Origin: Comamonadaceae bacterium
GTDB taxonomy: Bacteria > Pseudomonadota > Gammaproteobacteria > Burkholderiales > Burkholderiaceae_C
Direction: 5' to 3'
Assembly: GCA_008080595.1 (NCBI GenBank)
Contig: VIKI01000004.1
Span: forward strand, 30,212-94,211
Length of the DNA: 64,000 nt
Below, in pieces: positions 10,290 to 62,953 of this stretch (positions are counted from its first letter, which is position 1; every line of letters starts with the position of its first letter). A model generated the notes under the pieces. It was not told the origin of the DNA. It was given only the letters and a program-made list of their open reading frames with translations, and ran no database searches. A program made the translations under genes and the position numbers.

Positions 10290-10346
10290 TATTTAAATTT
10301 GATAGCGCCTTGCGCAATGCCAGAAAGGCTTATCAGGCTGTTTTTG
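10290..10346 (+). repeat. Bipartite palindromic element R1 (between usp and argP, overlapping the argP 3' end)
   Basis: TATTT-AAATTTG-ATAGC-GCCTT-GCGCAA-TGCCAGA-AAGGCT-TATCAGGCT-GTTTTT. Confidence 0.7.
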
Positions 10347-11256
10347 TATGAGTTAAAACTATGTCTGCGGCTGTTTTCAGTGCTTGCGTCAAAGCATCAA
10401 GCACCGCAGACTCCAGATTCCAGCAGTGCCAGTACAGGGCCACTGGCAGCACCTGTCCTGGCATCAGATCAATCAACGCCCCAGAGCGTAAATACTCGCG
10501 CACCAGCAGTTCCGGTAACACACTGATGCCCCAACCATCCATCACAGCACGCACTTGGCCGATGGAGCTGGGCACATACATTTGACTCAGTGACACATGC
10601 TTGAGCCCACACGCATGGGCCACAAACTCAGACTGCAGATCATCTTTTCGATTAAACGCAATAAAAGGCAGTTTGCTGAAGTTATGAGCTGTCAGCCCCT
10701 CTGGGCATCGCTCGGCAGCAAAATCAGCTTGCGCCACTGCAACGTAACGCATCGTGCCCAGCGGAACCACTTTGCAGCTGCGAAGTGCTGCTGGCAAGGT
10801 GGTGACACAGCCCAGCACTCGTCCTTCACGTAACCACTCAAAGGTAAAGTCCTGATCATCGGTGATGATCTCCAGCCCCAATCCCTGATGCGCCAATGAG
10901 CCCAAGGCGGGCAAAGCCCAGGTGGCAATGCTGTCAGCGTTGATGGCGATGGAGATACGTTCCTCTTCTCCCGCCATGCCAGCTACGCCGGGAGCCATGT
11001 CTTTCAAATCACGCTCCAGGTCAGCGCGCAACAAGCGCATTTGCATGGCATGTTTGAGCAGCAAACGCCCGGCGGTGGTGGCCTTCAAAGGGCGACTGCG
11101 CACAATCAGCACCGTCCCGACCTGCACCTCCAGCGAACGCAAGCGCTGCGACACTGCCGACTGGGTGATTGACAATCGCACCGCTGCACGCTCAAAGCCG
11201 CCTTCTTCCACAATGGCCGCCAGGCATTCCAATGCATCAGGATCAAATGTGCTCAT
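10333..11256 (-). CDS. argP: LysR-family regulator, ArgP/IciA type
   Basis: GFERAA, ITQSAVSQRLRSLE, INADSIATW, LYWHCW; start moved to MSTFDPD because the ORF-track start overlaps the tRNA. Confidence 0.85.
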   Translation of the reverse strand: MSTFDPDALECLAAIVEEGGFERAAVRLSITQSAVSQRLRSLEVQVGTVLIVRSRPLKATTAGRLLLKHAMQMRLLRADLERDLKDMAPGVAGMAGEEERISIAINADSIATWALPALGSLAHQGLGLEIITDDQDFTFEWLREGRVLGCVTTLPAALRSCKVVPLGTMRYVAVAQADFAAERCPEGLTAHNFSKLPFIAFNRKDDLQSEFVAHACGLKHVSLSQMYVPSSIGQVRAVMDGWGISVLPELLVREYLRSGALIDLMPGQVLPVALYWHCWNLESAVLDALTQALKTAADIVLTHTKTA

Positions 11257-11339
11257 GGGTATCTTCAAATATCCGCTTATTTGGCGTTGCAGGCGCGAAT
11301 CGCGGCTCTCCCGGTGTGGCTCAATGTGCCTGAGAGAGA

Positions 11340-11415
11340 TGGTGCGGCTGGCGGGGATCGAACCCACGACCCTTGGCTTCGGAGGCCAATACTCTATCCA
11401 CTGAGCTACAGCCGC
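11340..11415 (-). tRNA. tRNA-Arg (CCG)
   Basis: GCGGCTGTAGCTCAGTGGATAGAGTATTGGCCT-CCG-AAGCCAAGGGTCGTGGGTTCGATCCCCGCCAGCCGCACCA; 76 nt cloverleaf with CCA. Confidence 0.97.
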
Positions 11416-11483
11416 ACTTGTCTAAAAACAAGACTGCATTCTCGCACAGACCCCTACCGCCATCTGACAGCAGGTGAATTGCG

Positions 11484-15246
<3,763 letters not shown>

Positions 15247-16714: not shown

Positions 16715-16730
16715 TTTGAGATCAGCTTGG

Positions 16731-25406: not shown

Positions 25407-26017
25407 ATGCCGTGCGTGCTTTATGGGAACGTTTGGCCTTGTACCTGCCAGTGCTGCTGATGGGGGTGCTGGCCATGGCCACTTACTGGCTGGTACGCAA
25501 CACCCCGACACCCAGCCAGCCAGAGCCTGCCGCAGCCGTTGTACACGAGCCAGACTATGTCATGCGCAAGTTTGCCGTCAAAACCTATGCGGCCAACGGC
25601 CAACTCAAAAGTGATGTCACGGGGGTTGAAGCACGTCACTTTCCCGATACCGACACGCTTGAAATAGACCAGGCGCATATTCGCTCATTCAATGAACAAG
25701 GTCGCTTGACCACCGCTACCGCACGTCGAGCCGTGACCAACGGTGATGCGTCCGAGGTGCAGCTGATTGGCAGTGCCCAGGTGGTACGCGCAGAAATCAA
25801 AGATGACAAAGGCAAAATCCAGCCCAGCCTGACGTTCAACGGCGAGTTCTTGCACGCCTTCATGAACACCGAGCGGGTCAAATCCCACAAACCGGTTGAG
25901 TTGACCCGTGGCAAAGATCGCTTTACTGCCGAAAGCATGGACTATGACAATCTGGAGCGCGTGATGCTGCTGCGTGGCCGGGTACGCGGCCAGCTTGTCC
26001 CTGGCAATACCCATTAA
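25403..26017 (+). CDS. lptC: LPS export periplasmic protein
   Basis: Single N-terminal TM, EPDY motif, position after kdsC. Confidence 0.88.
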   Translation: MNAVRALWERLALYLPVLLMGVLAMATYWLVRNTPTPSQPEPAAAVVHEPDYVMRKFAVKTYAANGQLKSDVTGVEARHFPDTDTLEIDQAHIRSFNEQGRLTTATARRAVTNGDASEVQLIGSAQVVRAEIKDDKGKIQPSLTFNGEFLHAFMNTERVKSHKPVELTRGKDRFTAESMDYDNLERVMLLRGRVRGQLVPGNTH

Positions 26018-26027
26018 GCGGATGCTT

Positions 26028-26810
26028 ATGACACCCTTGATTTTGATCACTGGCGCTTCCAGCGGAATTGGCCAGGCCATGGCCTTGCACTACGCCCGCA
26101 AAGGTGCACGTCTGGCCCTGACGGCGCGTCGCACAGACACCATCAAATCGTGGCTTGATGCTCATGGAATAAGCGCAAGCAGCTATGAACTTTATAGTGC
26201 AGATGTTGCCAACATCGACAGCATGGCCACATTGGCACAAGACTGCCAGAAACGCCAGGGAATTCCTGACGTGGTGATTGCCAACGCAGGTATCAGCCTG
26301 GGTGTGGATTCTTCTGAGCGCGCGGACCTGGATGTCATGGCACGTATTTTGGCCACCAATGTCATGGGGGTTGCGGCCACCTTTGGCCCATTCATCAACG
26401 CCATGCGTGCACGTGGTTCCGGCACACTGGTTGGCATAGGCAGCGTGGCGGGCATTCGGGGTCTGCCTGGGCATGGTGCTTACTGCGCCAGCAAGGCGGC
26501 AGTGATCAGCTATTGCGAAAGCTTGCGCGGTGAATTGCGCACCAGTGGTGTCAAAGTGGTGACGATCTGCCCTGGCTATATAGCGACACCACTGACTCAG
26601 AACAACAGTTATCGCATGCCGTTTTTGATGCAAGCAGACGCATTTGCCCAGCAAGCCGTGCGAGCCATTGAGGCCGCTGACAGCTATTGCGTGATCCCAT
26701 GGCAAATGGGCGTGGTGGCCAAATTGTTGCGCATGCTGCCAAACGCTTGGTTTGACAAATTGTTGGCTGGGCGGCCGCGCAAACCGCGGAAAACCGATTC
26801 GGCGCAATGA
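26028..26810 (+). CDS. SDR-family oxidoreductase
   Basis: TGASSGIG, NAG, YCASK. Confidence 0.92.
   Translation: MTPLILITGASSGIGQAMALHYARKGARLALTARRTDTIKSWLDAHGISASSYELYSADVANIDSMATLAQDCQKRQGIPDVVIANAGISLGVDSSERADLDVMARILATNVMGVAATFGPFINAMRARGSGTLVGIGSVAGIRGLPGHGAYCASKAAVISYCESLRGELRTSGVKVVTICPGYIATPLTQNNSYRMPFLMQADAFAQQAVRAIEAADSYCVIPWQMGVVAKLLRMLPNAWFDKLLAGRPRKPRKTDSAQ
26145..26198 (-). repeat. Element R5, inside SDR gene (antisense)
   Basis: Reverse strand ACTAT-AAAGTTC-ATAGC-TGCTT-GCGCTT-ATTCCAT-GAGCAT-CAAGCCAC-GATTT. Confidence 0.8.
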
Positions 26811-33993: not shown

Positions 33994-35757
33994 TCATGGG
34001 GTGGGTGCTTGGCAACGCGGCAGCGTGACCACAAACTCGGCCCCGCCGCTGGCCAGGTTGCTGGCCGTCAGGCTGCCATTCATGGCCTGCACGATCGACG
34101 ATGAAATGGCCAGCCCAAGACCCAGGCCCTGCCCGCTGGCCTTGGTGGTGAAAAACGGCTCGAACAAATGCTTGGCCACCGCCTCCGGCAAACCGCAGCC
34201 GGTGTCGGTGATTCGGATGACGCTGTGTTGTGCGTCAGCCGCCAGCCAGATCTGCACTTTTTTGACCGGGGCCTGCTCCACCGCATCCAGCGCGTTGCGC
34301 AACAGGTTGATCAGCACCTGTTCCACCCGCACCGAGTCGCCCAACACATGCAGCAGCTCGGGGGTGTGCAGCTCCAGTGACACCGCCAGCCGCTCAAACT
34401 CGCCTTGCAGCAGCCGTGCAGCAGAGGCGATGGCGTGATTCACCTCCACCACCTGCACGGCCTGCGGGCTTTTGCGGGCAAAACCCTTGAGCTGCAACAC
34501 GATGCTGCCCATGCGGGCACTGGCCGCACTGATGTGGCGCAAGTTCTCATCCACCTGCGGCAGATTGCCGCGCTGCAAAAAGGTGCTGGCGTTGTCGGCA
34601 AAGGCCCGAATCGCCGTCAGTGGCTGGTTCAGCTCATGGGTGATGCCTGCCGCCATCTGCCCGAGCATGGCCAGCTTGCCGGCTTGCACCATCTCGTTGC
34701 GGGTCGAGCGCAGCAGGGCATCGGTCTGTTGCAGCTTGGTGTTCTTGCTGGCCAGCAGCGCGTTGGCGGACAACAGCTCCTGGGTGCGCAGCGTGATCTT
34801 GTGCTCCAGCTCGTCGGCGGCTTGCTTCAAAGCCTGCTGCGCCGCACTGCGCTCTTGCAAGCGCCGCTTGCGCTGGTCATAACTCACCGCCATGGCGGCG
34901 GCCACCAGCAACAACAGCAAGGTCACCGCAGCCGACAACAGACCCGCCCGCACCACCTTGCCCTGCGCCGGAAACTGCATCAGCTGCCAGCCCAGCCGCC
35001 CCACCGGGCGTGCAATGGCATCGCCAAAACCTTGGCGCTCTGGTGCGGCCAGGCTGGCAATCGGGGTGACTTGTTTGTCCAGGTACTGCAGCGTTTGGCC
35101 AATGCCTTGCTGCACCGACGGTTCCAATGGGCGCAGGCTGTGGTAGTTCCAGGCGCTGCGGTTGCTGAGGAACACAATGCCTTGGCGATCCGTCAGCGCA
35201 ATCGGGTCTTCGTTGCGGCTCCAGGTGTTCTCAAACGCATCCAGGGTGATCTTGACGGCAATCACGCCCGCTGGTGCAGCGGCCCCGCCGGGAATGTGGG
35301 TGGTGCTGCCAATGGCGTAAAAGTAGCCCGGTTTGCCCTGTATCGCCTCCTGAAAATACGGGCGGAATCTGAAGTTTTGCCCCATGAAACTGCTTGGCGT
35401 ATCCCAATTGCTGGAAGCAATGGTTTTGCCGTCCTGATCCATCAGGTAAATCGCGGCCACCTTGGCCTGGCGTTGCAAATCCTGCAAGCTGTCGTTGAGT
35501 TCGCTGATCAAGGCGGCCTGCGTCGGCGCAGCCAGGGCCTGTGCGGCCAGTGGCAAATGGGCAATGGCATAGGGCAGCGTGTCATAACGCTCCAGCACCG
35601 CCTCCAGGTCGAGCGCAATGATTTGCAATTGGCGCTCGCTGCTCAGGTGAATCGCCTCATAAGCGTTGCGTGCGCCCAACCAGTACGCCGCAAACACCAA
35701 GCCAGCGGCCAGCAGCCCGGCGCTGAGCCAACGAAGCGTGCGGTGGGTGGGTTTCAT
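33994..35757 (-). CDS. dctB: DctB-like sensor histidine kinase (possible in-frame deletion in the sensor domain)
   Basis: SFMGQNFRFRPYF, HELNQPL, FEPFFTTK, GLGLGL. Confidence 0.82.
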   Translation of the reverse strand: MKPTHRTLRWLSAGLLAAGLVFAAYWLGARNAYEAIHLSSERQLQIIALDLEAVLERYDTLPYAIAHLPLAAQALAAPTQAALISELNDSLQDLQRQAKVAAIYLMDQDGKTIASSNWDTPSSFMGQNFRFRPYFQEAIQGKPGYFYAIGSTTHIPGGAAAPAGVIAVKITLDAFENTWSRNEDPIALTDRQGIVFLSNRSAWNYHSLRPLEPSVQQGIGQTLQYLDKQVTPIASLAAPERQGFGDAIARPVGRLGWQLMQFPAQGKVVRAGLLSAAVTLLLLLVAAAMAVSYDQRKRRLQERSAAQQALKQAADELEHKITLRTQELLSANALLASKNTKLQQTDALLRSTRNEMVQAGKLAMLGQMAAGITHELNQPLTAIRAFADNASTFLQRGNLPQVDENLRHISAASARMGSIVLQLKGFARKSPQAVQVVEVNHAIASAARLLQGEFERLAVSLELHTPELLHVLGDSVRVEQVLINLLRNALDAVEQAPVKKVQIWLAADAQHSVIRITDTGCGLPEAVAKHLFEPFFTTKASGQGLGLGLAISSSIVQAMNGSLTASNLASGGAEFVVTLPRCQAPTP

Positions 35758-35768
35758 GGGGCTTGAAT

Positions 35769-35824
35769 ACTATTGTTTTGATAGCTGTTTGCGCTTGTAT
35801 GATAAGCGCTAGAGGCCAATTTTG
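35769..35824 (+). repeat. Element R6 (near-consensus, between dctB and GNAT)
   Basis: ACTAT-TGTTTTG-ATAGC-TGTTT-GCGCTT-GTATGAT-AAGCGC-TAGAGGCC-AATTTTG. Confidence 0.9.
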
Positions 35825-35848
35825 TTCATAGAAATGGCTTCCAAAGCC

Positions 35849-36346
35849 TCATTTCAGCCCCTTGCTCAGCACCACGCTGCGATACACCTTGCCAGACCAC
35901 TGGACAAAACCAACATGCTGGTAGCCCAGGCCGGTGTACAGCGTGATCAGGTGCTGCGCTTGCTCGGCGGTATCCATGGCCAGCTCGGCAAATCCGTGCG
36001 CCAGTGCCCACTGCTCGCAGGCCAGCAGCAGGGCTCGCCCAATGCCTTGCCCCTGGCAAGCGGGGTCAACCGCAAACTGATGAACAGCGGCGACACCGGG
36101 CCGGGTGAAGTAGGCACACTCATTCACGTCGTAAGTCGGCTTCACCACAATCGTGCCGGCCATCTGGCCAGCCACTTCGGCCACAAAACACTGCCCGCCA
36201 GCCAGACGCTGGGCGGTGACTTCTGGGGTTTGATCGACAGCGGTGTAGTTGAGCCCCATCGCACCCAGGCGGGCGTAGGCGCGATGCAGCAAGTGGGTGA
36301 GGTCAAGCAGGGAGTCGTTGGGCTGAAGGGGGCGGATCGGGTGCAT
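35849..36346 (-). CDS. GNAT N-acetyltransferase
   Basis: QFAVDPACQGQGIGRALL acetyl-CoA motif; start MHPIRP. Confidence 0.88.
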   Translation of the reverse strand: MHPIRPLQPNDSLLDLTHLLHRAYARLGAMGLNYTAVDQTPEVTAQRLAGGQCFVAEVAGQMAGTIVVKPTYDVNECAYFTRPGVAAVHQFAVDPACQGQGIGRALLLACEQWALAHGFAELAMDTAEQAQHLITLYTGLGYQHVGFVQWSGKVYRSVVLSKGLK

Positions 36347-36423
36347 GGGCTGGCGTTCTGTGGATGCCGTGATTCTATGAATCTGCCCCAGGGTGACGGC
36401 CTGCACCAAGCCTGCGCCAACAA

Positions 36424-36776
36424 TCACTCGGCTGGACGACTCACAGCGGCTACCGGCCCGCCGGACTCCAGCACCCCAATGGCGTAGTTGGCCAGCGCCT
36501 GGTCGGCCCTGGGCGAATGGGCTCGGCCTTTGGCTTTGGTTTGGTAGGCCTCGGTGGCTTCCTTGCCGCACCAGGGCAGGATGATGCTGGGTGGGGTCGG
36601 GTGCTCGGGCAGGTAGGCGCTCAGGTCGTACACCGCACTTCGGCCAGAGCAATACCGTGGGGTTTTTCTGGCATGGACTGCCGGGGTGCTGGCGGTGTCA
36701 GCCAGGCCACAAGCGCCAGCGCGATCAGCGCCAGCCAGAAAAGGCCAGTCCCGATGAAGAAGAGTTTGCGCATCAT
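36424..36776 (-). pseudogene. Membrane-anchored cytochrome b5-domain protein with internal deletion/frameshift near 36635
   Basis: MMRKLFFIG...IALAEV, then out of frame VYDLSAYLPEHP...WCGKEATEAY...HS; the b5 HxxxxDCW segment is absent. Confidence 0.78.
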
Positions 36777-38335: not shown

Positions 38336-38531
38336 ACACCGTGCGGATTCTTTCCGGATGTTTCAACGATTGTGCGGCGAACGGTTCGCCACGAACCACG
38401 AATGCATCAACTTTGTGTGCATCATGCCGGGGCCCCAGCGGCCCCTGGCAATCCAAGGAAAAGACACGGTCTACTTCACCACAACCGCCGTGCTGTCCGT
38501 GGAGGTCAGGCCCGCTCCCGGCGTATGAATG

Positions 38532-38587
38532 CCGCGTTGTTTTGTAGCTGCTTGTGCTTGTTCTGAATGCGCTGTTTGCGGGTTCAC
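38532..38587 (+). repeat. Element R7
   Basis: CCGCG-TTGTTTT-GTAGC-TGCTT-GTGCTT-GTTCTGA-ATGCGC-TGTTTGCG. Confidence 0.75.
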
Positions 38588-38666
38588 TGCCACCGTTCGC
38601 AGCTTGCGGTGCTCCTGCAAGGCCAGGATAAGCTAACTATGGGCTTGTTCGCTTATCCGCGCTGGA

Positions 38667-43197: not shown

Positions 43198-44999
43198 TTG
43201 CTGCAGTTGGATGAGGATCGCTTTCTGGTCGAGCAGTTGCGATTGATCTTGGGTAACGTGGCCCGCACCGTCATCCCGGTCATTTCGCTGGCGATATTGT
43301 TGTGTGTTTTCCTGTCCAACGACAGCAATGCATGGGCGCTGAGGCTGTGGACTGTAGCGGCCATTGCATCCAATCTGAATGGCTACTTCTACACGCGGCG
43401 CCAAGTCCTTGGTGGCATTCCATCCGAACGGGCGCATCACATCGTCTGGATGCTGATGCTCCTGACGGCCATTGATGGTGCACTCTGGGCGGCATTGCCC
43501 TGGATCACCTTGGATACCGCCAGCCCGGCTGGCAGTATTCTGGTGGTTTCGGTCATTGCAGGCATGGCAGCCGGTGCCATGGCGACACAGTCTCAGGTGC
43601 TGGTCGTGTTCATTGCCTGTGTGATCCCGGAGATCGGCATTTCTGCCATGAAGGTTTGGCTTCGCTTCTCGGTGGTAGCCAATACCAGGCGCTGGCAATA
43701 GCCGCAGCGCTGTACCTTGCCGCTTTGCTGGGTCAGGCTCGCAACACGGCACAAGCCACACGTGCTGCCATACAACTGCGTTTTGACAACACCGAGTTGC
43801 TGGAACAACTGCGCTTCAAGACAGCGGTGGCCGAATCAGCACGACTTGAAGCCGAAGCTGCCAACAGTGCCAAATCAAAATTCCTCGCAGCCGCCAGTCA
43901 CGATTTGCGCCAACCGATCCATGCCCAGGGGCTATTTCTGGCCGTTCTTGCTCGCACGGAACTGACACCCCACCAGCAGGTGCTGCTCTCCAATGCACGC
44001 GCTGCGTCTGCCGACTCGAGGGACATGCTCAACAAGCTGCTGGATTTTTCGCGCATTGAAGCCGGTGTGATTGAGCCCAATCTGCAACCGGTTGGTTTGC
44101 AGTCACTGCTGCACAAGATTGAACGCGACCTTGCACCCCAGGCCAACGAAAAAGACCTGGTCTATCGCTCGCGTGAAACGCATCTATCGGTTCGCTCTGA
44201 TCCGGTGCTGTTGGAATTGATTTTGCGCAATCTGGTGTCCAACGCCATCCGTTACACCGAGCGCGGCGGAATTTTGGTGGCATGCAGACAACGCGGCGAT
44301 CAGGTGGTGCTGGAGGTCTGGGACACCGGCATGGGCATTGCCATCGAACAACAGCAAGCCATCTTTCGGGAATTTCACCAGTTGGGCAATCCGGAACGTG
44401 ATCGCAGCAAGGGACTGGGTCTTGGTTTGGCCATCGCGGAGCGACTGACGCAGAGCCTTGGACATCGCTTGTCGCTGGTGTCCACACCGCAACGTGGCAG
44501 CGTGTTTCGACTTGCCTTGCCTCTTGTGGATAGTACCCTGTCAAATCAACTGGAGCCCACGGCGCACATTCCGGTGCGCTTGCTGAACGCGCGGGTTCTG
44601 GTGGTGGACGATGATGCAGCGGTATGTTTCGGCATGCTCCATTTGCTGCGTGATTGGGGTTGCATCTGCGTCGCGGCGCAGTCCATTGAGGAAGCTCTGG
44701 TCATTGCCAATGAGCAAGCGCTTGACCTGCTCATTTGCGACTATCGCCTGCGCGGACACCGTACCGGTTCGGAATGTATCGTCGCTTTGCGAGCCCTGCT
44801 CGGGCAGGACAAGCCCGCACTGCTCGTCACCGGCGACACCGCACCCGAGCGCCTGCGCGAGGCGCAAGGCAGTGGCATACCGCTGTTGCACAAACCTGTT
44901 TCCCCTGGCCAGTTGTACCGGCGCTTGGTTGAGATACTTGAAGCCACGGCACTTGCCCCCGAAAGGGCACCCTCAGCTCCAGTTGCAACGCCCCACTAG
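43198..44999 (+). pseudogene. Membrane hybrid sensor kinase split by a 5-bp duplication
   Basis: GCTTC-GCTTC at 43659-43668; removing one copy gives continuous KVWLLGGSQYQ, joining the TM part to SHDLRQP/HATPase/receiver. Confidence 0.85.
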
Positions 45000-45126
45000 G
45001 CGCAGGTTGAGGTGCGTTACAGCTCGGATGTGCTGGCCGCTTTTCGCTCACGGGCGCAGGCTGGCAGACGTACCGAATCGCGGCTGGTGCCGCTCCTGCA
45101 AATGCCATCTCAGACATCTAAAAAAT

Positions 45127-45182
45127 AATATGATTTTGCTAGCTTGTTGCGCTTAACTGACAAGGCCTACAGGCTAATTCAA
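45127..45182 (+). repeat. Element R8
   Basis: AATAT-GATTTTG-CTAGC-TTGTT-GCGCTT-AACTGAC-AAGGCC-TACAGGCT-AATTC. Confidence 0.8.
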
Positions 45183-45549
45183 TACCGGCAGTACGGCCGT
45201 GCCGTTCACCATGAGCTCTGGCGGGGTCACGTCCAAAGGTGAACTGACATTTGGCTCCTGTATTTTCACGATCACTGAATGGCCTGTAGGTGCTAAGCTG
45301 ACCCCTCCACGGGTCTACACCATTCCCACGGAAAAATGCAAGATGACGGTGAATACCACCAATGCCAAGGCCGATGGCTCCACGGCTAACCGGGATGTCA
45401 CCTTAACGATTGGGCGGGAGTTAGGCAATCCGTTTCCATACCCGATCACAGTTGCCGCAGATGGGACTATCCGCGTAGTGGCCAATGGTAAGTCCTTCGC
45501 TACGCCACTTAAAGGTACCGTTGTTCAGATCACCGGCGCTGGCAACTGA
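45178..45549 (+). pseudogene. Probable 5'-truncated fragment of a beta-rich, Thr/Gly-rich exported protein gene
   Basis: Frame opens at the tail of R8 (FNTGSTAVPFTMSSGG...TFGSCIF); no RBS or signal peptide. Confidence 0.55.
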
Positions 45550-45658: not shown

Positions 45659-45790
45659 TCACGCCGCCCAGTGCCCGAGCGTGAACGCCTCCTCCAACAC
45701 CGAGTAGCCCGCCCAGTCACTGTGGGCAAAGTTCAGGCGCTCATGGGTGATTTGGAAGCACTCTTATTTTTGTAGCTGCTTGCGCTTATT
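45659..45790 (-). repeat. Diverged duplicate of the 3' end of the FAD oxidoreductase gene (direct repeat of 47447-47578)
   Basis: 132 bp, 10 mismatches by manual count; encodes ...FAHSDWAGYSVLEEAFTLGHWAA*. Confidence 0.95.
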
Positions 45791-45815
45791 AGACAAGCGC
45801 CAGAGGTCCATTTGA
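45760..45815 (+). repeat. Element R9
   Basis: ACTCT-TATTTTT-GTAGC-TGCTT-GCGCTT-ATTAGAC-AAGCGC-CAGAGGTC-CATTTG. Confidence 0.9.
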
Positions 45816-45941
45816 ACATCAACATGAGACTCGAAATCAACTGTGGCTTGCGCGTCTTGAGTCTGATCTCAAGGCCATCCCATAAACTCTGTGGGTCTGG
45901 CACCTGGATGTGAACCCGCTGTCCTTTTAACGCCCAAATTC

Positions 45942-45997
45942 ACGATGAAAACAGTAGCTGCTTGCGCAAGTGCAGCCTTGGCTGGAGACGAAAAATG
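45942..45997 (+). repeat. Element R10, abutting the AlbA_2 gene start
   Basis: ACGAT-GAAAACA-GTAGC-TGCTT-GCGCAA-GTGCAGC-CTTGGC-TGGAGACG-AAAAATG. Confidence 0.75.
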
Positions 45998-47434
45998 CAC
46001 TCAATGTCCGTGACCACCCTCCAGGCTCTGGTCGCCAAAGGTGAATCTGTGACGCTGGAGCTGAAAAAGTCCACCGCCGAAAAAGACCGCGCCTGTCGCA
46101 CCCTGTGTGCTTTTGCCAATGGGCAGGGCGGGCAATTGGTGTTTGGGGTTACGCCTGCGGGCAAGGTGATGGGCCAGCGCGTCACCGACCGCACGCTGGA
46201 AGAGCTGGCGCAGGAACTGCAAGGCTTTGAGCCGCCACTGTTTCCCCGCGTGCAGCGCATCCAAGTGGCCGATGGGCTGGAGGCCTTGCTGCTGGCGGTT
46301 GACCCCGCCACGCATGGGCCGGTGTCGTTTCGCGGTGTGCCCTATGAGCGGGTGCTCAACACCACCCGCGTGATGTCGCGCAGCACCTACCAAGCCCTGT
46401 TGCTTGAATCGTTACACGCCAGCCAGCGCTGGGAAACCCAGCCTGCCCCTGGCTGGAGCGTAGACCAGTTGGACACGCGCGAAATGGTGTTGACGCTGGA
46501 AGAGGCCATCCGCCGGGGCCGCAGCGTTGACCCCGGCACCCGTGACCCGCTGGAGATTTTGCGCGGGCTGGGGCTGCTGGTGGCGGGAGGGCAAGTGTCC
46601 CGCGCTGCGGTGGCCTTGTTTTGCCAGGGTGAGCAGCCCTTGCCCGATTTCACCCAACTCACCTTGCGCCTGGCCCGCTTCAAGGGGCGTGAACGCAACG
46701 AGTTTTTGGACAACCGCCAGTTTCACGGCAACGCCTTTGAGCTGATGCGCCGGGCCGAGCGGTTTTTGATCGACTGGTTGCCGGTGGCCGGGCGCGTTGT
46801 GCCAGGCCAGTTGCAGCGGGAAGACACCCCCAGTTTGCCGGTGGAGGCGCTGCGCGAAGCGCTGGCCAACGCCTTTGTGCACCGCGACTATGCCAGCGGC
46901 TCTGGAGCGGTGGCGGTGGCGCTGTTTGATGACCGGCTGGAAATCATTTCGTCAGGAGAGTTGCACTTTGGCCTGACCCCGGAGATGCTGTTCCAGCCCC
47001 ATGAATCCCGTCCCTGGAACCCGTTGATTGCCAGCGTGTTTTATCGGCGTGGTCACATCGAGAGCTGGGGTCGGGGCACATTGAAATTCATTCGCCTGAT
47101 GCAAGAGGCCGGGCTGACTCCACCCACACTGAAGGTGCAGGCGGGCTTTGTGACGGTGACGTTTGCCTTGCCCACCAGCCTTGTGCCCCGCATACAAGAC
47201 CGCACCTCTGGAAAAACGTCGGTGAAAACGTCGGTGAAAACGTCGGTGAAAACGTCGGTGAAAATTTTGGCCGAGGTACGCGAAAACGCGCAGATCACCA
47301 TTCCAGAGCTGGCCGCGCTGCTGGGCATCAGCACCCGCTCGGTGGAGCGCCAGTTGCGCCAGTTGCAGAACAACAAGCGCCTGGCGCGTATCGGTGCTGC
47401 CAAAGGCGGGCACTGGCAGGTGGTTGACCCATGA
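45995..47434 (+). CDS. Schlafen/AlbA_2 + HATPase_c_4 + HTH protein
   Basis: GESVTLELKKS, AFANGQGG..VFGV, REALANAFVHRDY, DDRLEIIS, IESWGRG, C-terminal HTH and GAAKGGHW. Confidence 0.88.
   Translation: MHSMSVTTLQALVAKGESVTLELKKSTAEKDRACRTLCAFANGQGGQLVFGVTPAGKVMGQRVTDRTLEELAQELQGFEPPLFPRVQRIQVADGLEALLLAVDPATHGPVSFRGVPYERVLNTTRVMSRSTYQALLLESLHASQRWETQPAPGWSVDQLDTREMVLTLEEAIRRGRSVDPGTRDPLEILRGLGLLVAGGQVSRAAVALFCQGEQPLPDFTQLTLRLARFKGRERNEFLDNRQFHGNAFELMRRAERFLIDWLPVAGRVVPGQLQREDTPSLPVEALREALANAFVHRDYASGSGAVAVALFDDRLEIISSGELHFGLTPEMLFQPHESRPWNPLIASVFYRRGHIESWGRGTLKFIRLMQEAGLTPPTLKVQAGFVTVTFALPTSLVPRIQDRTSGKTSVKTSVKTSVKTSVKILAEVRENAQITIPELAALLGISTRSVERQLRQLQNNKRLARIGAAKGGHWQVVDP
47213..47260 (+). 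repeat. In-frame 12-bp tandem repeat x4 (KTSV)
   Basis: AAAACGTCGGTG four perfect times in the linker before the HTH. Confidence 0.95.
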
Positions 47435-47446: not shown

Positions 47447-49078
47447 TCAAGCCGCCCAGTGCCCCAGCGTGAACGCTTCTTCAAACACCGAGTAGCCCGC
47501 CCAGTCGCTGTGGGCAAAGTTCAGGCTCTCATGGGTGATTTGGAAATACTCTGATTTTTGTAGCTGCTTGCGCTTATTCTGAAAGCTCTGAAGGCCAATT
47601 CCACCATCCATATTGGGCACCGGCACAGCCATCGCGTGGCCGTAGCGGGTGAGGTCGATGCGGCGGGTTTTGGCGGGCAGATCGGGGTGAGCTGCGCAGA
47701 GCTCGGCCAGAATCGCGTCGCGCCAAGTTGCCCACGGCTGCTCCAGCAGCAGGCGGCGGCCCGCGTGGCCCAGCGCCTCACCTGCACCGCCCAGATCACC
47801 CAGCGCCCGGTAATAGGTCAGAACCGTGGCCCCTGACACGCTTTGCAGGCTCTGGTGCATGGCATCGACATAGCCCAGGCCCGCGGCCCCATACAGCACG
47901 TTGTCCCAGCTCGGCGGTGCGCCGGGGCGGTCGTGCAAGGGCTGCTGGAGCTGAATATTGGCCACCAGCCACGGCGCGTAGACCGTGCGGGCCGCGGCCT
48001 GGCGCAGCCAGTCGGGCGGATTTTGCAGCACCCGGGCGGCCATAAAAATCGGCAGCGCCACAATGGCCCGGCGGGCTTGCCAGCGCTCCACGGCTTGGGT
48101 GGTGGTGTTGAACACATCCACCTCCACACCGTGTTTCAGGTTGGTCACGCGCAGCACCACCTGGCCGGTGTGCAGGCGTTGTTGCAAGGGGGCGGCCAGG
48201 CGGCGGGTGAGCCAGGCGTTGCCCTCGGGCCAGGTCAGCAGGCCTTCGCGCTCGGCGCTTTCCACACCCGGCGCAGCAAAGCCGTGGCGGCTGGCAAAGT
48301 AGTGGATACCGGCCCAGGCCGACACCTGGGCCAGCCCGGCCCCGTAGTCGTCACGGCAGCAGTAGTTCAGATACCAGCGCAGCTGCGGGTCGGTGAGCTG
48401 GTGCTGGTTCAGCCACGCTTCAAAAGTGAGAGCTGCCAGCGCTTGTTTAACGGGAGTTACAGGCGACTTTGATGCAGGCATGCTCCAGCGCTCGGTACGC
48501 CGCAGCTGCTCGATCCGCTGGGCGAATTGCCGGTATTGCGCCAGGGTGTCGGCCGCCACACCGTGCTGCGGCAGCAAGCCGTCTTGCCATTCGCCGTCGA
48601 AATACAAGCGCTCTTGCGGGCTGTGGCACAGGTGGCGCTCGTCATAAACCCAGCGCCCGGCCACGCGGCGGCGCAGGCCCAGCTCTTCCAGCAAGTCTTG
48701 CACTTCCCAGGCATCGTCACCCGGCAAGGGCAGGTAATGCGCGCCCTGCGGGCAGGCCATACCGCCCAGCTGCCCGGCACGGCTGTTGCCACCGGCGCTG
48801 TCTTCCAGCTCCAGCAGGGCAAAGTCTTCGATGCCTTTGAGTCGCAAGCCGCGGGCGGCGGCCAGGCCAGCCACACCGCCACCAGCAATCAGCACATCGG
48901 TCTGGCGCGTGCGGCTGGGGGTGGGCCAGGCCTGCGCTTTTTGCAGCAGGTGACCGCGCGCATGCCCGATGCCGGTGAAGCCACCGCTGATGTGGGCCCC
49001 ATCGGCCTGCGGCTGGCAGGCCGCCAGGGGCAGCAGGGCGGTGCTTAAAAACTGGCGTCGGTACATGGTGGGAGGCAT
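47447..49078 (-). CDS. FAD-dependent oxidoreductase (amine oxidase-like), Tat/lipoprotein-type signal
   Basis: RRQFL...LAAC, GGGVAG, GAHYLP, YCCRDDYG, FAHSD. Confidence 0.88.
   Translation of the reverse strand: MPPTMYRRQFLSTALLPLAACQPQADGAHISGGFTGIGHARGHLLQKAQAWPTPSRTRQTDVLIAGGGVAGLAAARGLRLKGIEDFALLELEDSAGGNSRAGQLGGMACPQGAHYLPLPGDDAWEVQDLLEELGLRRRVAGRWVYDERHLCHSPQERLYFDGEWQDGLLPQHGVAADTLAQYRQFAQRIEQLRRTERWSMPASKSPVTPVKQALAALTFEAWLNQHQLTDPQLRWYLNYCCRDDYGAGLAQVSAWAGIHYFASRHGFAAPGVESAEREGLLTWPEGNAWLTRRLAAPLQQRLHTGQVVLRVTNLKHGVEVDVFNTTTQAVERWQARRAIVALPIFMAARVLQNPPDWLRQAAARTVYAPWLVANIQLQQPLHDRPGAPPSWDNVLYGAAGLGYVDAMHQSLQSVSGATVLTYYRALGDLGGAGEALGHAGRRLLLEQPWATWRDAILAELCAAHPDLPAKTRRIDLTRYGHAMAVPVPNMDGGIGLQSFQNKRKQLQKSEYFQITHESLNFAHSDWAGYSVFEEAFTLGHWAA
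47548..47603 (+). repeat. Element R11, in frame near the FAD oxidoreductase C-terminus
   Basis: ACTCT-GATTTTT-GTAGC-TGCTT-GCGCTT-ATTCTGA-AAGCTC-TGAAGGCC-AATTCC, encoding IGLQSFQNKRKQLQKSE. Confidence 0.88.
48417..48472 (+). repeat. Element R12, second copy in the FAD oxidoreductase
   Basis: GCTTC-AAAAGTG-AGAGC-TGCCA-GCGCTT-GTTTAAC-GGGAGT-TACAGGCG-ACTTTGA. Confidence 0.7.
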
Positions 49079-50894: not shown

Positions 50895-50920
50895 ACCCTG
50901 AGTTTCCAATCGCTTTGGAA

Positions 50921-50975
50921 CAAATCAGGCGGTAGCGCTTATCGCATAAGCGCAGGCAGCTCTGATATTTGCAGC
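50921..50975 (-). repeat. Element R13
   Basis: Reverse strand GCTGC-AAATATC-AGAGC-TGCCT-GCGCTT-ATGCGAT-AAGCGC-TACCGCCT-GATTTG. Confidence 0.85.
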
Positions 50976-51065
50976 ATAGAAGAGCGTAAATCCGTGCCAC
51001 TCTTTACAATCTTGTCCGCAGCGTTGGCGCACCCTTACTCCCCATTTTTTTCCCCGGACACGAGC

Positions 51066-55835: not shown

Positions 55836-58926
<3,091 letters not shown>

Positions 58927-60235: not shown

Positions 60236-61965
60236 GGGTCAAGCGCCAGCCGCGCACCGGACAACACCAGGCGCTCAAAGTCAGGCACGGGCACCGGCGG
60301 ACTGAACAGATAGCCTTGCAGCTGGTCGCAGCCCAGCTGGCGCAAAAACGCCATTTGCTCAGGGGTTTCCACCCCTTCGGCCACAATTTCCTGGCGCAGT
60401 TGTTTGGCCAGGGTGATGATCGCCCGGGCAATGGCACAGTCGTTTTCATCGGTGGGCACACCAATCACAAACGCACGGTCAATTTTGAGGGTGGTGATGG
60501 GAAATTTTTTCAGGTAAGACAGGCTGGAGTAACCCGTGCCAAAGTCGTCCATCGACAGCGCCAGGCCCATGGCCACCAGTTCATTCATGATGCTGATGAC
60601 GCCATCTGCGCCACGCACCAGCAGACTCTCGGTGATTTCGAGCTGCAAGCAGCTGGCCGGCAACTGGTAACGCTCCAGCACCGTGCTCAGGCGGTCGGGC
60701 AATAAGCGGTCAAACTGGCGGGCCGACAAATTGACCGCAATCGCGGGCATGACCAAGCCCGCATCCAGCCAGGCACGAATCTGGCGGCAGGCTTCTTCCA
60801 GTACCCAGCTGCCAATGTCCATGATCAGCCCGGTTTCTTCCGCCACCGGAATAAATTTGGCTGGTGACACCATGCCGTTGGTGGGATGACGCCAGCGGAT
60901 CAAGGCTTCAGCTCCCATGATTTGCCCGGTGCGCAGGCTCACCTTGGGCTGGTAATACAAGACCAATTGCTGGGCCACCAAGGCGTGACGCAACTCACCT
61001 TCAAGCTGCCATTTTTCTTTGGCGCGCTGGTTCATTTCGGAACTGTAAAAGAGGTAGCCAGACTCCTCTTCGGCCTTGATGCGGTTGACCGCCACATCGG
61101 CAAAACGCAGCAGAGAGGCTACATCTTGTGCATCATCAGGAAACACCGCAATACCCACGCTCAAGCCCACATGCACCAGTTGGGAGCGCAGATGAAACGG
61201 TGCTTCCATGGCTGCCAGCAATTTTTTGGCCACGATACCGGCATGCTCACGCTGCTCCAAACTGAGCAAGCCCACCACAAATTGGTCGCTGCCCACTTTG
61301 GCCAGCACATCGGTGGTGCGTAAGGTCTGACCAAAACGCTGGCTGATTTGTTTCAGCAACTCGTCTGCCACATCCAGGCCGAGCGAGTCGCTGATGTTGG
61401 ACAGGCGCTCCAGCTCGACCATCATGACCGCCGCCACCTGATGCTGGCGCTTGACGCTGGCCAGCGCCACGTCAAACAACTGGATGAAATGGCTGCGGTT
61501 GGGCAAACCGGTCAGATCGTCAAAATTTGCCAGCCGGACAATGCGCGCCTGCGCCTCATGTAACACGCTGATGTCTGAAAAAATCGAAAACGCATGGGAG
61601 ATGACCCCGGACTGATCCCGCACCACGCTGATCGACACGTTTTGCGGAAACATTTCACCGTTTTTGCGCTTGCCAATGATTTCCCCTTGCCAAGGCCCCG
61701 AACCCGCCATGGCCGCCCTGACCTTGGCACGAAACTCGGCATCATGCACGCCTGAGCGCAGCAAGTCAGTGGTTTTGCCAATCGCCTCGGCACGGCTGAA
61801 ACCGGTGATTTTGGTGAACGCCGCGTTGACCGACACAATGCGCTCATGGGCATCGGTGATCAAAATGCCCTGGTCGCTGTCGTTGAAGATGCGCGAATGC
61901 AGGCGCTGCAGTTCATCGGGGGTCAAATCCGGGTAAATGTCATCATGCTTGGGTAAGTCAGTCAT
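60232..61965 (-). CDS. PAS-GGDEF(degenerate)-EAL phosphodiesterase
   Basis: GSDQF replaces GGDEF; EALIRW and DDFGTGYSS intact. Confidence 0.88.
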   Translation of the reverse strand: MTDLPKHDDIYPDLTPDELQRLHSRIFNDSDQGILITDAHERIVSVNAAFTKITGFSRAEAIGKTTDLLRSGVHDAEFRAKVRAAMAGSGPWQGEIIGKRKNGEMFPQNVSISVVRDQSGVISHAFSIFSDISVLHEAQARIVRLANFDDLTGLPNRSHFIQLFDVALASVKRQHQVAAVMMVELERLSNISDSLGLDVADELLKQISQRFGQTLRTTDVLAKVGSDQFVVGLLSLEQREHAGIVAKKLLAAMEAPFHLRSQLVHVGLSVGIAVFPDDAQDVASLLRFADVAVNRIKAEEESGYLFYSSEMNQRAKEKWQLEGELRHALVAQQLVLYYQPKVSLRTGQIMGAEALIRWRHPTNGMVSPAKFIPVAEETGLIMDIGSWVLEEACRQIRAWLDAGLVMPAIAVNLSARQFDRLLPDRLSTVLERYQLPASCLQLEITESLLVRGADGVISIMNELVAMGLALSMDDFGTGYSSLSYLKKFPITTLKIDRAFVIGVPTDENDCAIARAIITLAKQLRQEIVAEGVETPEQMAFLRQLGCDQLQGYLFSPPVPVPDFERLVLSGARLALDP

Positions 61966-62137
61966 ACGAGTCCCTTATGAGCCATCAACACCAAGGTGTC
62001 TTCCGTGAGCGGGGTTGAGTTGCATGATAGCAAGGAGGCAAAAAGCTGCTTGTGGACAACAAGCCAGCCCAGCCAGAGCCGCCAGAACGTGGCGTTTGGG
62101 CTATGCTTGCCTTCCCCATTCACACCTGAGTCTGCCC

Positions 62138-62953
62138 TTGTCAAACCCTGCCCCCACTCCCAAGCTCGCCACCGCCATGCTGCTGGCCGCTGGCCGGGGT
62201 GAGCGGATGCGCCCGCTCACCGATACCTGTCCGAAACCCTTGCTGACGGTGCAGGGCAAACCGCTGATGCAGTGGCATCTGGAAGCCTTGGCGCAGGGCG
62301 GCTGTGCCAGCGTGGTGGTCAACACCGCTTGGCTGGGGCAGCAGATTGAACAGACTTTTCATGATGTTTTTGAGCTGCAGCGCATATCAGATATGCGCAA
62401 GCAGCTATTTAATTCAGAGCAATCACCACGCTTGAATATTCGTTACTCACACGAAGGCCGGGACTTTGGCGGGGCGCTGGAAACCGCTGGTGGTATTGCC
62501 CGTGCCCTGCCGCTGCTGGACGACGTGTTCTGGCTGATGGCTGGCGATGTGTACACGCCGGGCTTTGAATTTGACCCGATCACACTGACGCGTTTTGCCG
62601 CCAGCGACAAGCTGGCCCACCTGTGGCTGGTGCCCAACCCGGCGCACAACCCCGGTGGTGACTTTGGCTTGCAAGCCAGCCCTGACGGCGGCCCGGCGCT
62701 GGCGCTGAACCTGCCCAAAGACACGGCGCAACCGCGTTACACCTATTCCACCATTGGCCTGTTTCGCCGCGCGTTGTTTCAAACCCCGTGGTGCGACATT
62801 GCCAGCGGCAACCCCGAGGGTGTCAAAGCCCCACTGGCTCCCTTGTTACGCCACGCCATGGACAATCAGCGCATCAGTGCCGAGCTGTACACCGGGCCGT
62901 GGACCGATGTCGGAACCCCCCAGCGGCTGGCCGAACTCAACACATTGCCATGA
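62138..62953 (+). CDS. murU: Nucleotidyltransferase, MurNAc-alpha-1-P uridylyltransferase-like
   Basis: AAGRGERMRPLT..PKPL, LETAGGI, WTDVGTP. Confidence 0.82.
   Translation: MSNPAPTPKLATAMLLAAGRGERMRPLTDTCPKPLLTVQGKPLMQWHLEALAQGGCASVVVNTAWLGQQIEQTFHDVFELQRISDMRKQLFNSEQSPRLNIRYSHEGRDFGGALETAGGIARALPLLDDVFWLMAGDVYTPGFEFDPITLTRFAASDKLAHLWLVPNPAHNPGGDFGLQASPDGGPALALNLPKDTAQPRYTYSTIGLFRRALFQTPWCDIASGNPEGVKAPLAPLLRHAMDNQRISAELYTGPWTDVGTPQRLAELNTLP
62365..62420 (-). repeat. Element R15, in frame in murU (antisense)
   Basis: Reverse strand GCTCT-GAATTAA-ATAGC-TGCTT-GCGCAT-ATCTGAT-ATGCGC-TGCAGCTC-AAAAACA, encoding FELQRISDMRKQLFNSE. Confidence 0.88.

Follow-up and report, generated by a model that had tools for sequence, protein, structure and literature searches.

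DNA-uptake signal sequences of the Pasteurellaceae (USS) and Neisseriaceae (DUS) occur in hundreds to thousands of copies, and their retention is ascribed to biased transmission, not to transposition. Their core of 9-12 bp (approx. 30 bp with the flanks) is found about once per kb. HIP1 (GCGATCGC) of cyanobacteria is an 8-bp highly iterated palindrome, the maintaining force of which is debated, and the Rickettsia palindromic elements (RPE) are insertions of 100-150 bp confined to Rickettsia, described as 'selfish DNA in protein-coding genes'. The motif considered here, first noticed in a window of 64,000 nucleotides, resembles USS/DUS in its many copies in equal orientations, with a conserved core and adjoining A/T tracts, in its intergenic position, often near 3' ends, in coding copies that occupy permissive frames without a change in length, in its lineage 'dialects' and in its rarity on mobile DNA. 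The over-representation in both orientations, the insertion-free coding copies and the scarcity on mobile DNA that are typical of uptake sequences are all found, whereas the short core and the frequency of approx. 1 per kb are not: the motif has a 54-nt core within a span of approx. 70 bp and occurs once per 6.3 kb, i.e. at an approximately five times lower density, and some of its copies are true insertions. No paper on a competence phenotype, a receptor or an uptake bias was found for these bacteria.

As in REP/BIME/REPIN families, which are short palindromic extragenic repeats, hundreds of copies lie near gene 3' ends, a (G/A)TAG-like tetranucleotide adjoins an imperfect palindrome, and RAYT homologues are present in the genome; here, however, the copies are mostly singletons, many are in genes, and the stems are weak and uncompensated. 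With HIP1 the motif shares iteration, retention at orthologous sites and being written into coding sequence by substitutions, but it is a composite of approx. 70 bp with fixed internal spacing. As with RPEs, in-frame copies are found in loops of housekeeping proteins that tolerate extra residues (MoeA, GarD and FtsJ, among others, in the present case). However, there is no sequence relationship, and about half of the domain-internal copies add no length; to our knowledge, length-neutral copies have not been described for RPEs. The Beta-proteobacterial repeat element (BRE) of Bordetella, Polaromonas, Rhodoferax, Acidovorax and Delftia is, like the motif, partly located inside ORFs (Hot et al. 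2011, PMC3110155). Identity with BRE was rejected on the basis of the published supplementary sequences, which are GC-rich (approx. 69% GC), 75-91 bp long, tandem, with cores such as GCCCCCTCGGGGGGCAGCAAGC, and unrelated (PMC3110155). The motif differs from published BRE and matches no Rfam family.

Architecture of the motif and its copies in the window

An nhmmer profile iterated genome-wide identified 865 copies at E<0.01 in the 5.4-Mb genome of this groundwater Comamonadaceae bacterium (433 on the plus and 432 on the minus strand), 859 of which are ungapped with respect to the 54-nt core. The copies have sharp ends and constant length, and the conserved span extends from approx. −4 to +66 relative to the core. 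In the window, TAGCTNNTTGCGC with at most one mismatch is found 9 times vs 1.47 expected from shuffles, with none of 100 shuffles reaching 9, and GCGCTT-N7-AAGCGC 4 times vs 0.44 expected. These values bear out the initial proposal of a real repeat family, commoner than in shuffled sequence, the spacers of which are fixed in length and variable in sequence, a property that holds genome-wide. The consensus consists of two short palindromic GC blocks (…ATAGCT-N2-TTGCGC… and …AAG(C/G)GCTA-N-AGGCC…) set between A/T-only tracts, with (A/G)TAG followed by an imperfect palindrome and a per-column information content that ranges from 0.08 to 2.19 bits. Strong mutual information is limited to positions within 4 nt of each other, and no linked subfamily sites were found among the copies by this analysis. 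At positions 52-54 and 63-64, the tracts switch as whole blocks between AAA and TTT, which suggests a DNA shape requirement.

Two short hairpins can be drawn from the consensus and, by taking into account the proximity of the copies to gene 3' ends, the double hairpin might be the functional form of a structured RNA (a small RNA, a 3'-UTR stabilizer or a terminator). This reading is already disfavoured, and we regard it as extremely improbable. The first-pass annotation had described the arms as covarying; in 859 copies, the Watson−Crick fraction equals the product of the column frequencies for every proposed pair, so that no covariation is detected in any tested helix, and in 100 copies paired cells amount to 78.5% vs 78.3% in shuffles. 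An A-A mismatch is present at positions 27/37 in half of the copies, the folding-energy z-scores of six window copies are between −3.15 and +1.28, and orientation with respect to flanking genes is nearly symmetric. No match of the motif to Rfam was obtained at gathering thresholds, at which the window yields only a tRNA, and at E<=1 nothing falls on a locus that holds a copy.

Among the 15 window copies initially listed, profile bit scores make nine robust and two marginal, and leave four unsupported; the original observation as a whole is partly confirmed. The best copy (35765..35834, core 35769-35822, +; 50.9 bits) is intergenic, flanked on one side by the start of a histidine-kinase gene (33994-35757, −) and on the other by the stop of a GNAT acetyltransferase gene (35849-36427, −); its positions 35781-35823 are matched by a pile of many other copies from metagenome contigs. 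Also intergenic are the copies at 45756..45825 (core 45760-45813, +; 43.4 bits), the 5' flank of which is, by alignment, a duplicate of the 3' tail of the gene at 47447, at 50910..50979 (core 50922-50975, −; 36.6 bits), with a GGDEF gene that stops at 50894 on one side and a TGL gene that starts at 51066 on the other, and at 45123..45192 (core 45127-45180, +; 32.2 bits), downstream of a hybrid histidine-kinase gene (43656-44999, +). A decayed copy (45938..46007, core 45942-45995, +; 21.2 bits) lies just upstream of a Schlafen/AlbA_2-HTH gene (46004-47434, +) and has an orthologous copy in G020, a relative with approx. 86% DNA identity to the window's genome (G000).

The other robust copies are inside genes. 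That of the nucleotidyl-transferase gene (62015/62138-62953, +; Pfam NTP_transferase match at aa 54-309) is at 62355..62424 (core 62367-62420, −; 40.4 bits) and is insertion-like, the ortholog of G008 being approx. 20 aa shorter at this point in the alignment. The FAD-dependent oxidoreductase gene (47447-49066, −) carries two copies, neither of which changes its length. The first (47544..47613, core 47548-47601, +; 34.7 bits) has PWM scores of 51, 61 and 32 in the element-rich G000, G020 and G010, and aligns without gaps to the ortholog of the element-poor G062, with a score of −26. The second, decayed (48413..48482, core 48417-48470, +; 21.9 bits), falls on a conserved protein segment (ALAA.TF) and scores 35, 35 and 43 in element-rich genomes vs −14 in G062. 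The partial copy in the short-chain dehydrogenase (SDR) gene (25974-26810, +) at 26133..26202 (core 26145-26198, −; 27.6 bits) covers model positions 2-39 over the alpha3-beta3 region with unchanged length: 26 orthologs align gap-free, with motif-like DNA only in element-rich genomes, and the Pfam adh_short match spans 189 aa vs 188 profile positions. Marginal or degenerate are the copies at 10286..10355 (+; 14.5 bits, E=0.0018 in the window), where the match of copy 10290 is restricted to model positions 5-30 in a convergent gap between genes at 9862-10281 (+) and 10333-11367 (−), and at 38528..38597 (+; intergenic, 13.9 bits, E=0.0028 in the window). The four unsupported copies are those at 12073 (6.6 bits, E=0.5 in the window), 57088 (8.0 bits, E=0.2), 18042 (0.7 bits) and 20571 (no profile match).

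Genomic placement and copies inside protein-coding genes

According to gene calls from a crude purpose-made caller, with a Pfam check on approx. 40 genes only, approx. 28% of the copies are inside ORFs, where most of the weak ones are found. The median distance to a stop codon is 27 nt. Genes were called on either side of 513 intergenic copies, 29% of which are in convergent gaps, although these make up 13% of all intergenic gaps, and divergent gaps contain fewer copies than expected. The copies are randomly spaced (CV 0.92), with neither regular spacing nor replichore bias found in the genome, and the motif is rare on plasmids and viral contigs. Neighbouring pairs separated by 100 nt or less are 31 out of 616, and inverted pairs are 22 in the +− vs 2 in the −+ orientation.

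The enrichment immediately downstream of stop codons and in convergent gaps, in which positive supercoils build up, would be consistent with a protein-binding site that benefits the host and is kept copy by copy by ordinary natural selection, as proposed for REP/BIME, with gyrase/topology handling, a nucleoid-associated protein or transcript 3' ends as candidate roles. The position-specific purifying constraint in situ (see below) also speaks for such a site, as do the A/T tracts that alternate with GC blocks and flip as AAA/TTT units. However, a local advantage is hard to see for copies within the coding sequence of mutS, moeA, SDR and ECH, whole lineages of the genus have lost the family, the spacing is random and we know of no binding protein for the motif, so that this explanation appears unlikely.

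In-frame copies are found in housekeeping genes. Those in MoeA, GarD, NTP_transferase, APH, SpoU, FtsJ and Beta_elim_lyase are insertion-like and add 15-32 aa, and at least six cause no length change (MutS, SDR, FAD oxidoreductase, with two, ECH_2 and the TrmA-like protein). The MutS copy is strong (46.3 bits with nhmmer, PWM 62.4), and the segment that carries it is universally conserved, the Neisseria MutS chains 5x9w/5yk4 aligning through it with a single 1-residue gap. For 5 out of 10 further domain-internal copies, the excess over the Pfam profile is 9 aa or less; no insertion is suggested for Glyco_transf_9, Hydrolase and LNT_N by Pfam length excess alone, without ortholog alignment, and the +9 aa of the former two is borderline. 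In variable loops, equal-length replacement could reflect block conversion instead of gradual substitution.

The insertion-like copies would be expected from a non-autonomous mobile repeat (MITE/REP-like, and RPE-like in frame) that spread in the ancestor of the genera and is now mostly fossil, with the conserved blocks as old transposase-binding sites and the in-gene copies as tolerated in-frame insertions. Such an origin would also accommodate the sharp ends and fixed length, the preference for gene 3' ends and avoidance of divergent promoter regions, the patchy distribution among genomes and the presence of some inverted pairs. It is, however, opposed by the copies that leave length unchanged, one of them in the universally conserved MutS segment, by the lack of subfamily linkage and by the absence of a TIR or TSD signal: among 859 copies no excess of direct or complementary identity was detected between flanks or ends (largest z approx. 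3, no diagonal). On this basis, assignment as a MITE, defined by TIR and TSD, is not supported.

Distribution, orthologous copies and candidate partner proteins

In the genomes searched, the family is confined to the Comamonadaceae, with the motif in 59 out of 141 genera and many copies in approx. 29. The architecture is shared by Polaromonas, Rhodoferax, Acidovorax, Giesbergeria and Ottowia, the lineages differing in 'dialect' at positions 27-37. The window's genus is bimodal, its genomes containing either hundreds of copies (approx. 21 out of 41) or almost none, and in the MoeA tree element-poor genomes are nested among element-rich ones.

G020, with 1 copy per 6.5 kb, allowed a comparison of orthologous sites. 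Of 105 G020 copies in syntenic surroundings, 85 have a counterpart at the corresponding place in G000. The few differences among these approx. 105 sites are deletions or rearrangements, and a clean empty site was encountered neither here nor in metagenome contigs; older filled/empty contrasts exist for the MoeA and GarD copies. Identity between intergenic orthologous copies is 0.92 at high-information and 0.66 at low-information positions, with approx. 0.8 in the flanks (rho=0.68), and the diversity of the moeA-embedded copy among 14 species (G000 excluded) is 0.28 vs 0.52, respectively, values that carry some ascertainment bias because the copies were found with the profile. At third codon positions of the moeA copy, the one locus on which the synonymous-site test was done, diversity is 0.31 vs 0.45 for the 4-fold sites elsewhere in the gene. 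Thus, evolution is slower at motif positions than at loop positions and 4-fold degenerate sites. Orthologous segments in element-poor relatives are decayed, with PWM scores from −14 to −51 vs approx. +33 to +72 in element-rich genomes (the exception being the TrmA-like site in the element-rich G010, +10), and are still well above random 54-mers (mean −85, 99.9th percentile −25).

These observations also bear on the fossil mobile repeat, the copies of which should decay evenly and gain indels. Instead, 99% are ungapped and the motif positions are kept in orthologs; furthermore, no clean empty site was found among the approx. 105 syntenic sites of G020 and G000, and neither Y1 transposase tracks the element. 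On balance, we consider this origin doubtful, if worth retaining.

Co-occurrence with a RAYT, for which the first-pass annotation had proposed a search, is not borne out. Two RAYT genes of G000 score above the NCBIfam NF047646 cut-off (150 and 232 aa) and each is accompanied by a single adjacent element, present on one side only, which, along with the REP-like (A/G)TAG and imperfect palindrome, could point to a REP family mobilized by RAYT. However, the 150-aa protein is found in 2 out of 141 genera vs the approx. 29 with many copies, and the 232-aa protein is near-universal (130 out of 141 genera, 39 out of 41 genomes of the genus), being intact in element-free genomes as well, and has no element within ±1.5 kb of its orthologue in the element-rich G192 and G170. 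By taking into account also the prevalence of singletons over REPIN doublets, the share of copies inside ORFs and the stems without compensatory change, this reading is already largely refuted, and we give it very little credence. REP/RAYT membership was rejected for want of a co-occurring RAYT, of inverted flanking REPs and of a preserved palindrome or doublets.

Tyrosine-recombinase core sites, to which the motif had also been compared, have inverted arms around a spacer of 6-8 bp and occur singly or in small numbers, each in association with a recombinase or a cassette. The analogy is superficial and one of geometry only: the 865 copies are dispersed, 28% of them are located in ORFs, and neither a recombinase gene linked to them nor a cassette arrangement is present, so that a dif/Xer-like or attC-like site is not supported.

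A proposed double-stranded DNA signal and its possible maintenance

The motif is of fixed length, is present in approx. 865 copies and in many genera, and is found between genes as well as in conserved coding sequence without a change in protein length; it therefore behaves as would be expected of a stationary, protein-read signal and not of an ordinary jumping repeat. The protein-recognized signal read by an unlinked factor that had been proposed at the outset is partly supported: the motif is genome-wide, of fixed geometry and constrained at the DNA level, given the position-specific conservation, the coupled AAA/TTT tracts and the lack of RNA-type covariation, and no linked gene explains it, but neither of the candidate RAYTs co-occurs with it. 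Our preferred, still tentative reading, to which we attach slightly less than even confidence, is that the motif is a double-stranded DNA signal read by an unlinked putative protein and kept in situ, most likely by biased transmission, or else by selection. The data show the architecture of the motif, its position-specific constraint, the retention of copy positions, the length-neutral copies, the decay in element-poor lineages and the lack of RNA, REP and MITE hallmarks; both the reading by a protein and drive instead of ordinary selection are what we infer.

According to this proposal, an unlinked candidate protein would read the motif as double-stranded DNA, and the family would persist through in-situ maintenance of each copy instead of continued transposition. 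The maintaining force would most likely be a molecular drive through biased transmission, similar to that of DNA-uptake signal sequences, so that variants nearer the preference of the reader would be passed on more often, e.g. owing to templated repair or to a bias in uptake or packaging. Further copies may arise by insertion or patch copying or, alternatively, when tolerant sequence, housekeeping codons included, is converted to the motif step by step. Purifying selection would restrict them to the 3' ends of genes and to protein loops that tolerate them, and loss of the reader in a lineage would let the copies decay.

Against drive, neither a reader protein nor a transmission bias was found, and ComEC is present in 37 out of 41 genomes of the genus whatever their element content, in element-rich and element-poor genomes alike. 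The true insertions of 15-32 aa are unexplained by pure point-mutation drive. Copy density is not lower in G020 DNA unshared with G000 (0.165 per kb vs 0.145 per kb in shared DNA), unlike known uptake sequences, and the motif is far longer, carries far more information and is less dense than any known uptake signal.

The most unusual properties of the family were those missed in the first-pass annotation, namely its distribution across the Comamonadaceae, the in-frame copies in housekeeping genes, the overwriting of coding sequence with no change in length and the lineage-specific decay.

Size and distribution of the motif family

The copies that the first-pass annotation listed in the window (G000:C243:30212-94211, G000 being the window's genome) align to a common consensus, as claimed, with core strings far above shuffle expectation. 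An nhmmer profile iterated to convergence on the genome (5.42 Mb, 322 contigs, 57.7% GC) recovered 865 copies, 433 on the plus and 432 on the minus strand, 859 of them ungapped with respect to the 54-nt core. When the 15 claimed window copies were scored with this genome-wide profile, nine were robust and two marginal, and the claim failed for four, namely those in gyrB (12073) and tkt (57088) and those at 18042 and 20571, none of which was significant. Conservation begins at approximately −4 and stops at approximately +66, with information per column lying between 0.08 and 2.19 bits; positions A15 G16 C17 T18, C24 G25 C26 and A45 are conserved in at least 90% of copies, and loop positions 32–33 are essentially random.

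The strict motif pattern was found in 18 of the 36 other genomes of the window's genus and in none of 25 other families of the order; carriers in a scan with one genome per species include Polaromonas, Rhodoferax, Acidovorax, Giesbergeria, Ottowia, Variovorax, Diaphorobacter, Comamonas and others. With a sequence-only model, matches were obtained in 59 of the 141 genera of the family, approximately 29 of which reach the top of the counting range, so that copy numbers there are lower bounds. The motif makes up approximately 1% of many Comamonadaceae genomes, and its architecture is constant from genus to genus, the preferred bases at positions 27–37 depending on the lineage. Within the window's genus, copy number is bimodal: among 41 genomes, approximately 21 hold at least 121 copies, approximately 12 hold 1–120 (mostly 1–21) and eight hold none. 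The element-poor genomes are nested among the element-rich ones on a MoeA tree, a single-gene tree with a weak backbone standing in for the species tree, on which five to seven changes of state are needed. ComEC was considered as a discriminator of the two classes and discarded, being found in element-rich and element-poor genomes alike.

The DNA of the window is represented mainly in groundwater metagenome runs, and no RNA run is listed as containing it. In viral contigs of IMG/VR the motif is rare (16 stretches), and the only match in the plasmid collection PLSDB lies inside the cobN coding sequence of NZ_CP049911.1 (107819-107873), a 242-kb replicon of Diaphorobacter sp. HDW4A.

Placement and upkeep at orthologous sites

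According to the gene calls of a home-made and crude ORF caller (5167 genes, 87% coding), G000 has 540 intergenic copies; another 242 (28%) have more than 80% of their length in ORFs, where they are spread evenly along genes and occupy frames free of stop codons. The intragenic share is 49% among copies scoring 18–25 bits versus 11% among those of at least 45 bits. Intergenic copies lie, in either orientation, at a median of 27 nt from stop codons versus 97 nt from starts; convergent gaps, which are 13% of all intergenic gaps, hold 29% of the 513 intergenic copies flanked by called genes, and divergent gaps are under-represented. Only 31 pairs of neighbouring copies lie within 100 nt of each other. 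Outside the window, at approximately 4.4–11.9 kb of contig C96, six tandem paralogous units each carry a plus/minus pair of elements approximately 95 nt apart, such pairs being listed also at C176:17323 and C244:3416. The spacer of the C96 pairs is conserved with an inverted repeat of its own (gactcaggtca.caacaccc…), and pair plus spacer may form a composite element or include a second small repeat.

In the complete, element-rich relative G020 (approximately 86% DNA identity), 182 copies were located in the first 1.2 Mb (L190-L249). Within one replichore there is no bias of polarity (97 plus versus 85 minus), and the spacing of copies is that of random placement (CV 0.92 versus 0.99). Element density increases with local GC content, being 0.58 per 10 kb in blocks below 54% GC versus 2.0 above 60% GC; bins unshared with G000 showed no depletion of copies, density being lower only in the low-GC blocks, and these are no less shared with G000 than the rest of the region.

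Of the G020 copies, 105 have syntenic flanks in G000, and at 85 of these sites G000 carries a copy as well, with an exact length match in 45 of the 85. No clean empty site was found between G000 and G020, the few differences being messy deletions, nor in four groundwater and drinking-water DNA runs; the one joint skipping the copy at 47548 was dismissed as an empty site, since it results from the piecewise alignment of a distant homologue. Orthologous intergenic copies are 0.92 identical at high-information positions, 0.66 at low-information ones and approximately 0.8 in the flanks (Spearman rho 0.68). For the copy embedded in moeA, diversity in 14 other species is 0.28 at high-information versus 0.52 at low-information positions, and at third codon positions it is 0.31 versus 0.45 at 4-fold sites outside the copy, a synonymous-site test made at one locus. 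Despite some ascertainment bias, these conservation tests, taken with how nearly indels are lacking, indicate in situ maintenance of motif positions.

Intragenic copies with and without a change in length

Approximately 13 intragenic copies were checked against orthologues and 20 more by Pfam span only, and they are of two kinds, insertion-like and without change in length. To the first kind belongs the MoeA copy, at which element-rich species have approximately 24–32 extra residues. Of ten element-poor species lacking the full insert, six have nothing at the site and four (G008, G034, G026 and G006) retain a small number of additional residues, which is also true of G007, G014, G019 and G035. 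There are 15 extra amino acids at the copy in GarD and approximately 20 in the nucleotidyl transferase of the window, and Pfam length excesses of +26 to +32 amino acids were obtained for APH, SpoU, FtsJ and Beta_elim_lyase domains.

The second kind includes MutS, in which a strong copy (46.3 bits by nhmmer, PWM score 62.4) encodes TLQKTELLAPVIQGLEAYL. In element-poor relatives this segment has homologous residues, position for position, specified by different codons, and the Neisseria MutS chains 5x9w/5yk4 align across it with a single 1-residue gap. Similarly, no length change accompanies the copy at 26145 in the SDR gene of the window across 26 orthologues, either of the two copies (47548 and 48417) in the window FAD oxidoreductase gene (47447-49066, minus strand), or those in an ECH_2 enzyme and a TrmA-like methyltransferase; in five of ten further domain-internal copies the Pfam excess is at most 9 amino acids. 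At the orthologous sites of these copies the PWM score is mostly +33 to +72 in element-rich genomes (the exception, +10, being the TrmA-like gene of G010) and approximately −51 to +9 in element-poor ones, the latter still well above random 54-mers (mean −85, 99.9th percentile −25). Most simply, the ancestor of the genus would already have had the motif at these sites, with some lineages actively keeping it and others letting it decay.

Some further features of these regions were observed. The 3′ tail of the FAD oxidoreductase gene and the first approximately 30 nt of the adjacent element form a 132-bp duplicate (window 45659-45790 and 47447-47578), which sits 1.8 kb upstream, adjoining the copy at 45760. 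The counterpart of this upstream flank in G020 is much more diverged, which suggests that an old segmental duplication was followed by conversion in G000. The stretch between the duplicated element-plus-flank copies contains a gene for a Schlafen/AlbA_2–HATPase_c_4–wHTH protein (46004-47434, plus strand); genes of this type are frequent in contexts of defence or mobility. In element-poor genomes of the genus, hypervariable protein linkers contain another in-frame repeat, GC-rich and palindromic, with core TTGCGGGTCGAGCCCGCAA and peptide GIHGLRVEPAMT, found at PurL loci L301 (G015) and L300 (G062) and at the UvrA-like locus L295 (G015); the exact core is absent from G000. The UvrA-like gene (L124/L291; G000:C79; G020:C1:4030754-4032997) lies within an open frame of approximately 2000–2200 amino acids in all five genomes, and its hypervariable linker holds different in-frame repeats by lineage.

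Nature of the motif and of the force maintaining it

The arms had been proposed to covary, and this was not borne out: in every pair of the two proposed hairpins the observed Watson–Crick fraction is no different from what multiplying the column frequencies gives, and the same is true of an alternative long hairpin. Among the 859 ungapped copies strong mutual information is confined to neighbours at most 4 nt apart, with no stem or distant pair standing out; paired cells amount to 78.5% versus 78.3% in shuffles, and six window copies folded as single strands gave weak structures that do not agree with one another. The motif has no Rfam match at gathering thresholds or at E ≤ 1, the only Rfam match in the window being a tRNA gene (11343-11415, minus strand). 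An RNA structure was therefore set aside, there being no covariation in any of the three hairpins and only weak DNA folds; the arms are thus conserved as sequence. A/T tracts at positions 52–54 and 63–64 flip between TTT and AAA as units, a behaviour that belongs to the shape of duplex DNA and not to base-specific or RNA pairing. A promoter reading was also rejected, as the hexamer spacings, with the consensus judged by eye, misfit sigma-70 and sigma-54.

Profiling for a co-occurring RAYT had been suggested as a check. Two genes of G000 pass the RAYT model NCBIfam NF047646, each with one adjoining element: L001 (C231:5456-6154, minus strand, 232 aa) and L002 (a 150-aa ORF on C14). Neither tracks the element. 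The 150-aa gene occurs in only two of 141 genera; the 232-aa gene is near-universal, single-copy and vertically inherited in the family, is intact in element-free genomes, and has no element beside it in the element-rich G192 and G170. The RAYT link is thus rejected on gene distribution and on flanks. The scan of the copies gave no TIR or TSD signal, and the BRE of Bordetella and Comamonadaceae (Hot et al. 2011, PMC3110155) is unrelated in sequence. Transposition alone cannot put an approximately 54-nt motif, free of indels, onto a segment of MutS that is universally conserved, nor can it preserve the motif positions of orthologous copies as their loop positions drift. That positions are independent fits an equilibrium motif whose reader is position-specific, as opposed to descent from master copies. 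Since transposition is insufficient and positions are independent, a reader of duplex DNA, putatively a protein, is the best-supported model.

The maintaining force could be biased transmission (by uptake, packaging or templated repair) or ordinary selection for a role in DNA topology or the nucleoid at the ends of genes. Of the two we favour drive, because copies lie in housekeeping coding sequence without plausible local benefit and weak copies pile up in ORFs, and because mobile DNA is mostly devoid of the motif and whole lineages lose it. Biased transmission would resemble that of uptake signals; what counts against a classical uptake signal is the greater length of the motif, its lower density, the inclusion of true insertions, a density that is alike in DNA shared and unshared with G000, and the occurrence of ComEC in both element-rich and element-poor genomes. 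The more specific proposal that the motif serves as recognition signal for a self-DNA transmission system of the Comamonadaceae, acting through uptake, packaging (gene-transfer-agent or phage-like) or a templated-repair bias, is a tentative and rather unlikely one; a reader would bind the composite site of approximately 70 bp, molecular drive would rewrite codons, e.g. those of mutS, and lineages losing the reader would lose the signal.

The motif appears undescribed, literature searches on its core, on Comamonadaceae repeats or REPs and on uptake sequences having yielded no paper that describes it. For a bacterial repeat it behaves unusually, with base-by-base upkeep at orthologous sites, conserved coding sequence overwritten without indels, and wholesale loss in some lineages of one genus. 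In practice, it affects gene calling and assembly, and it marks proteins carrying lineage-specific loop sequences. The contrast of element-rich and element-poor genomes within a genus makes the question of selection or drive on iterated DNA motifs directly testable, in a family (Acidovorax, Polaromonas, Rhodoferax, Variovorax and relatives) of major freshwater, soil and groundwater bacteria. Should the motif be a self-DNA transmission signal, uptake-signal-like systems would extend for the first time beyond Pasteurellaceae and Neisseriaceae, and this signal would be the longest of them by a wide margin.
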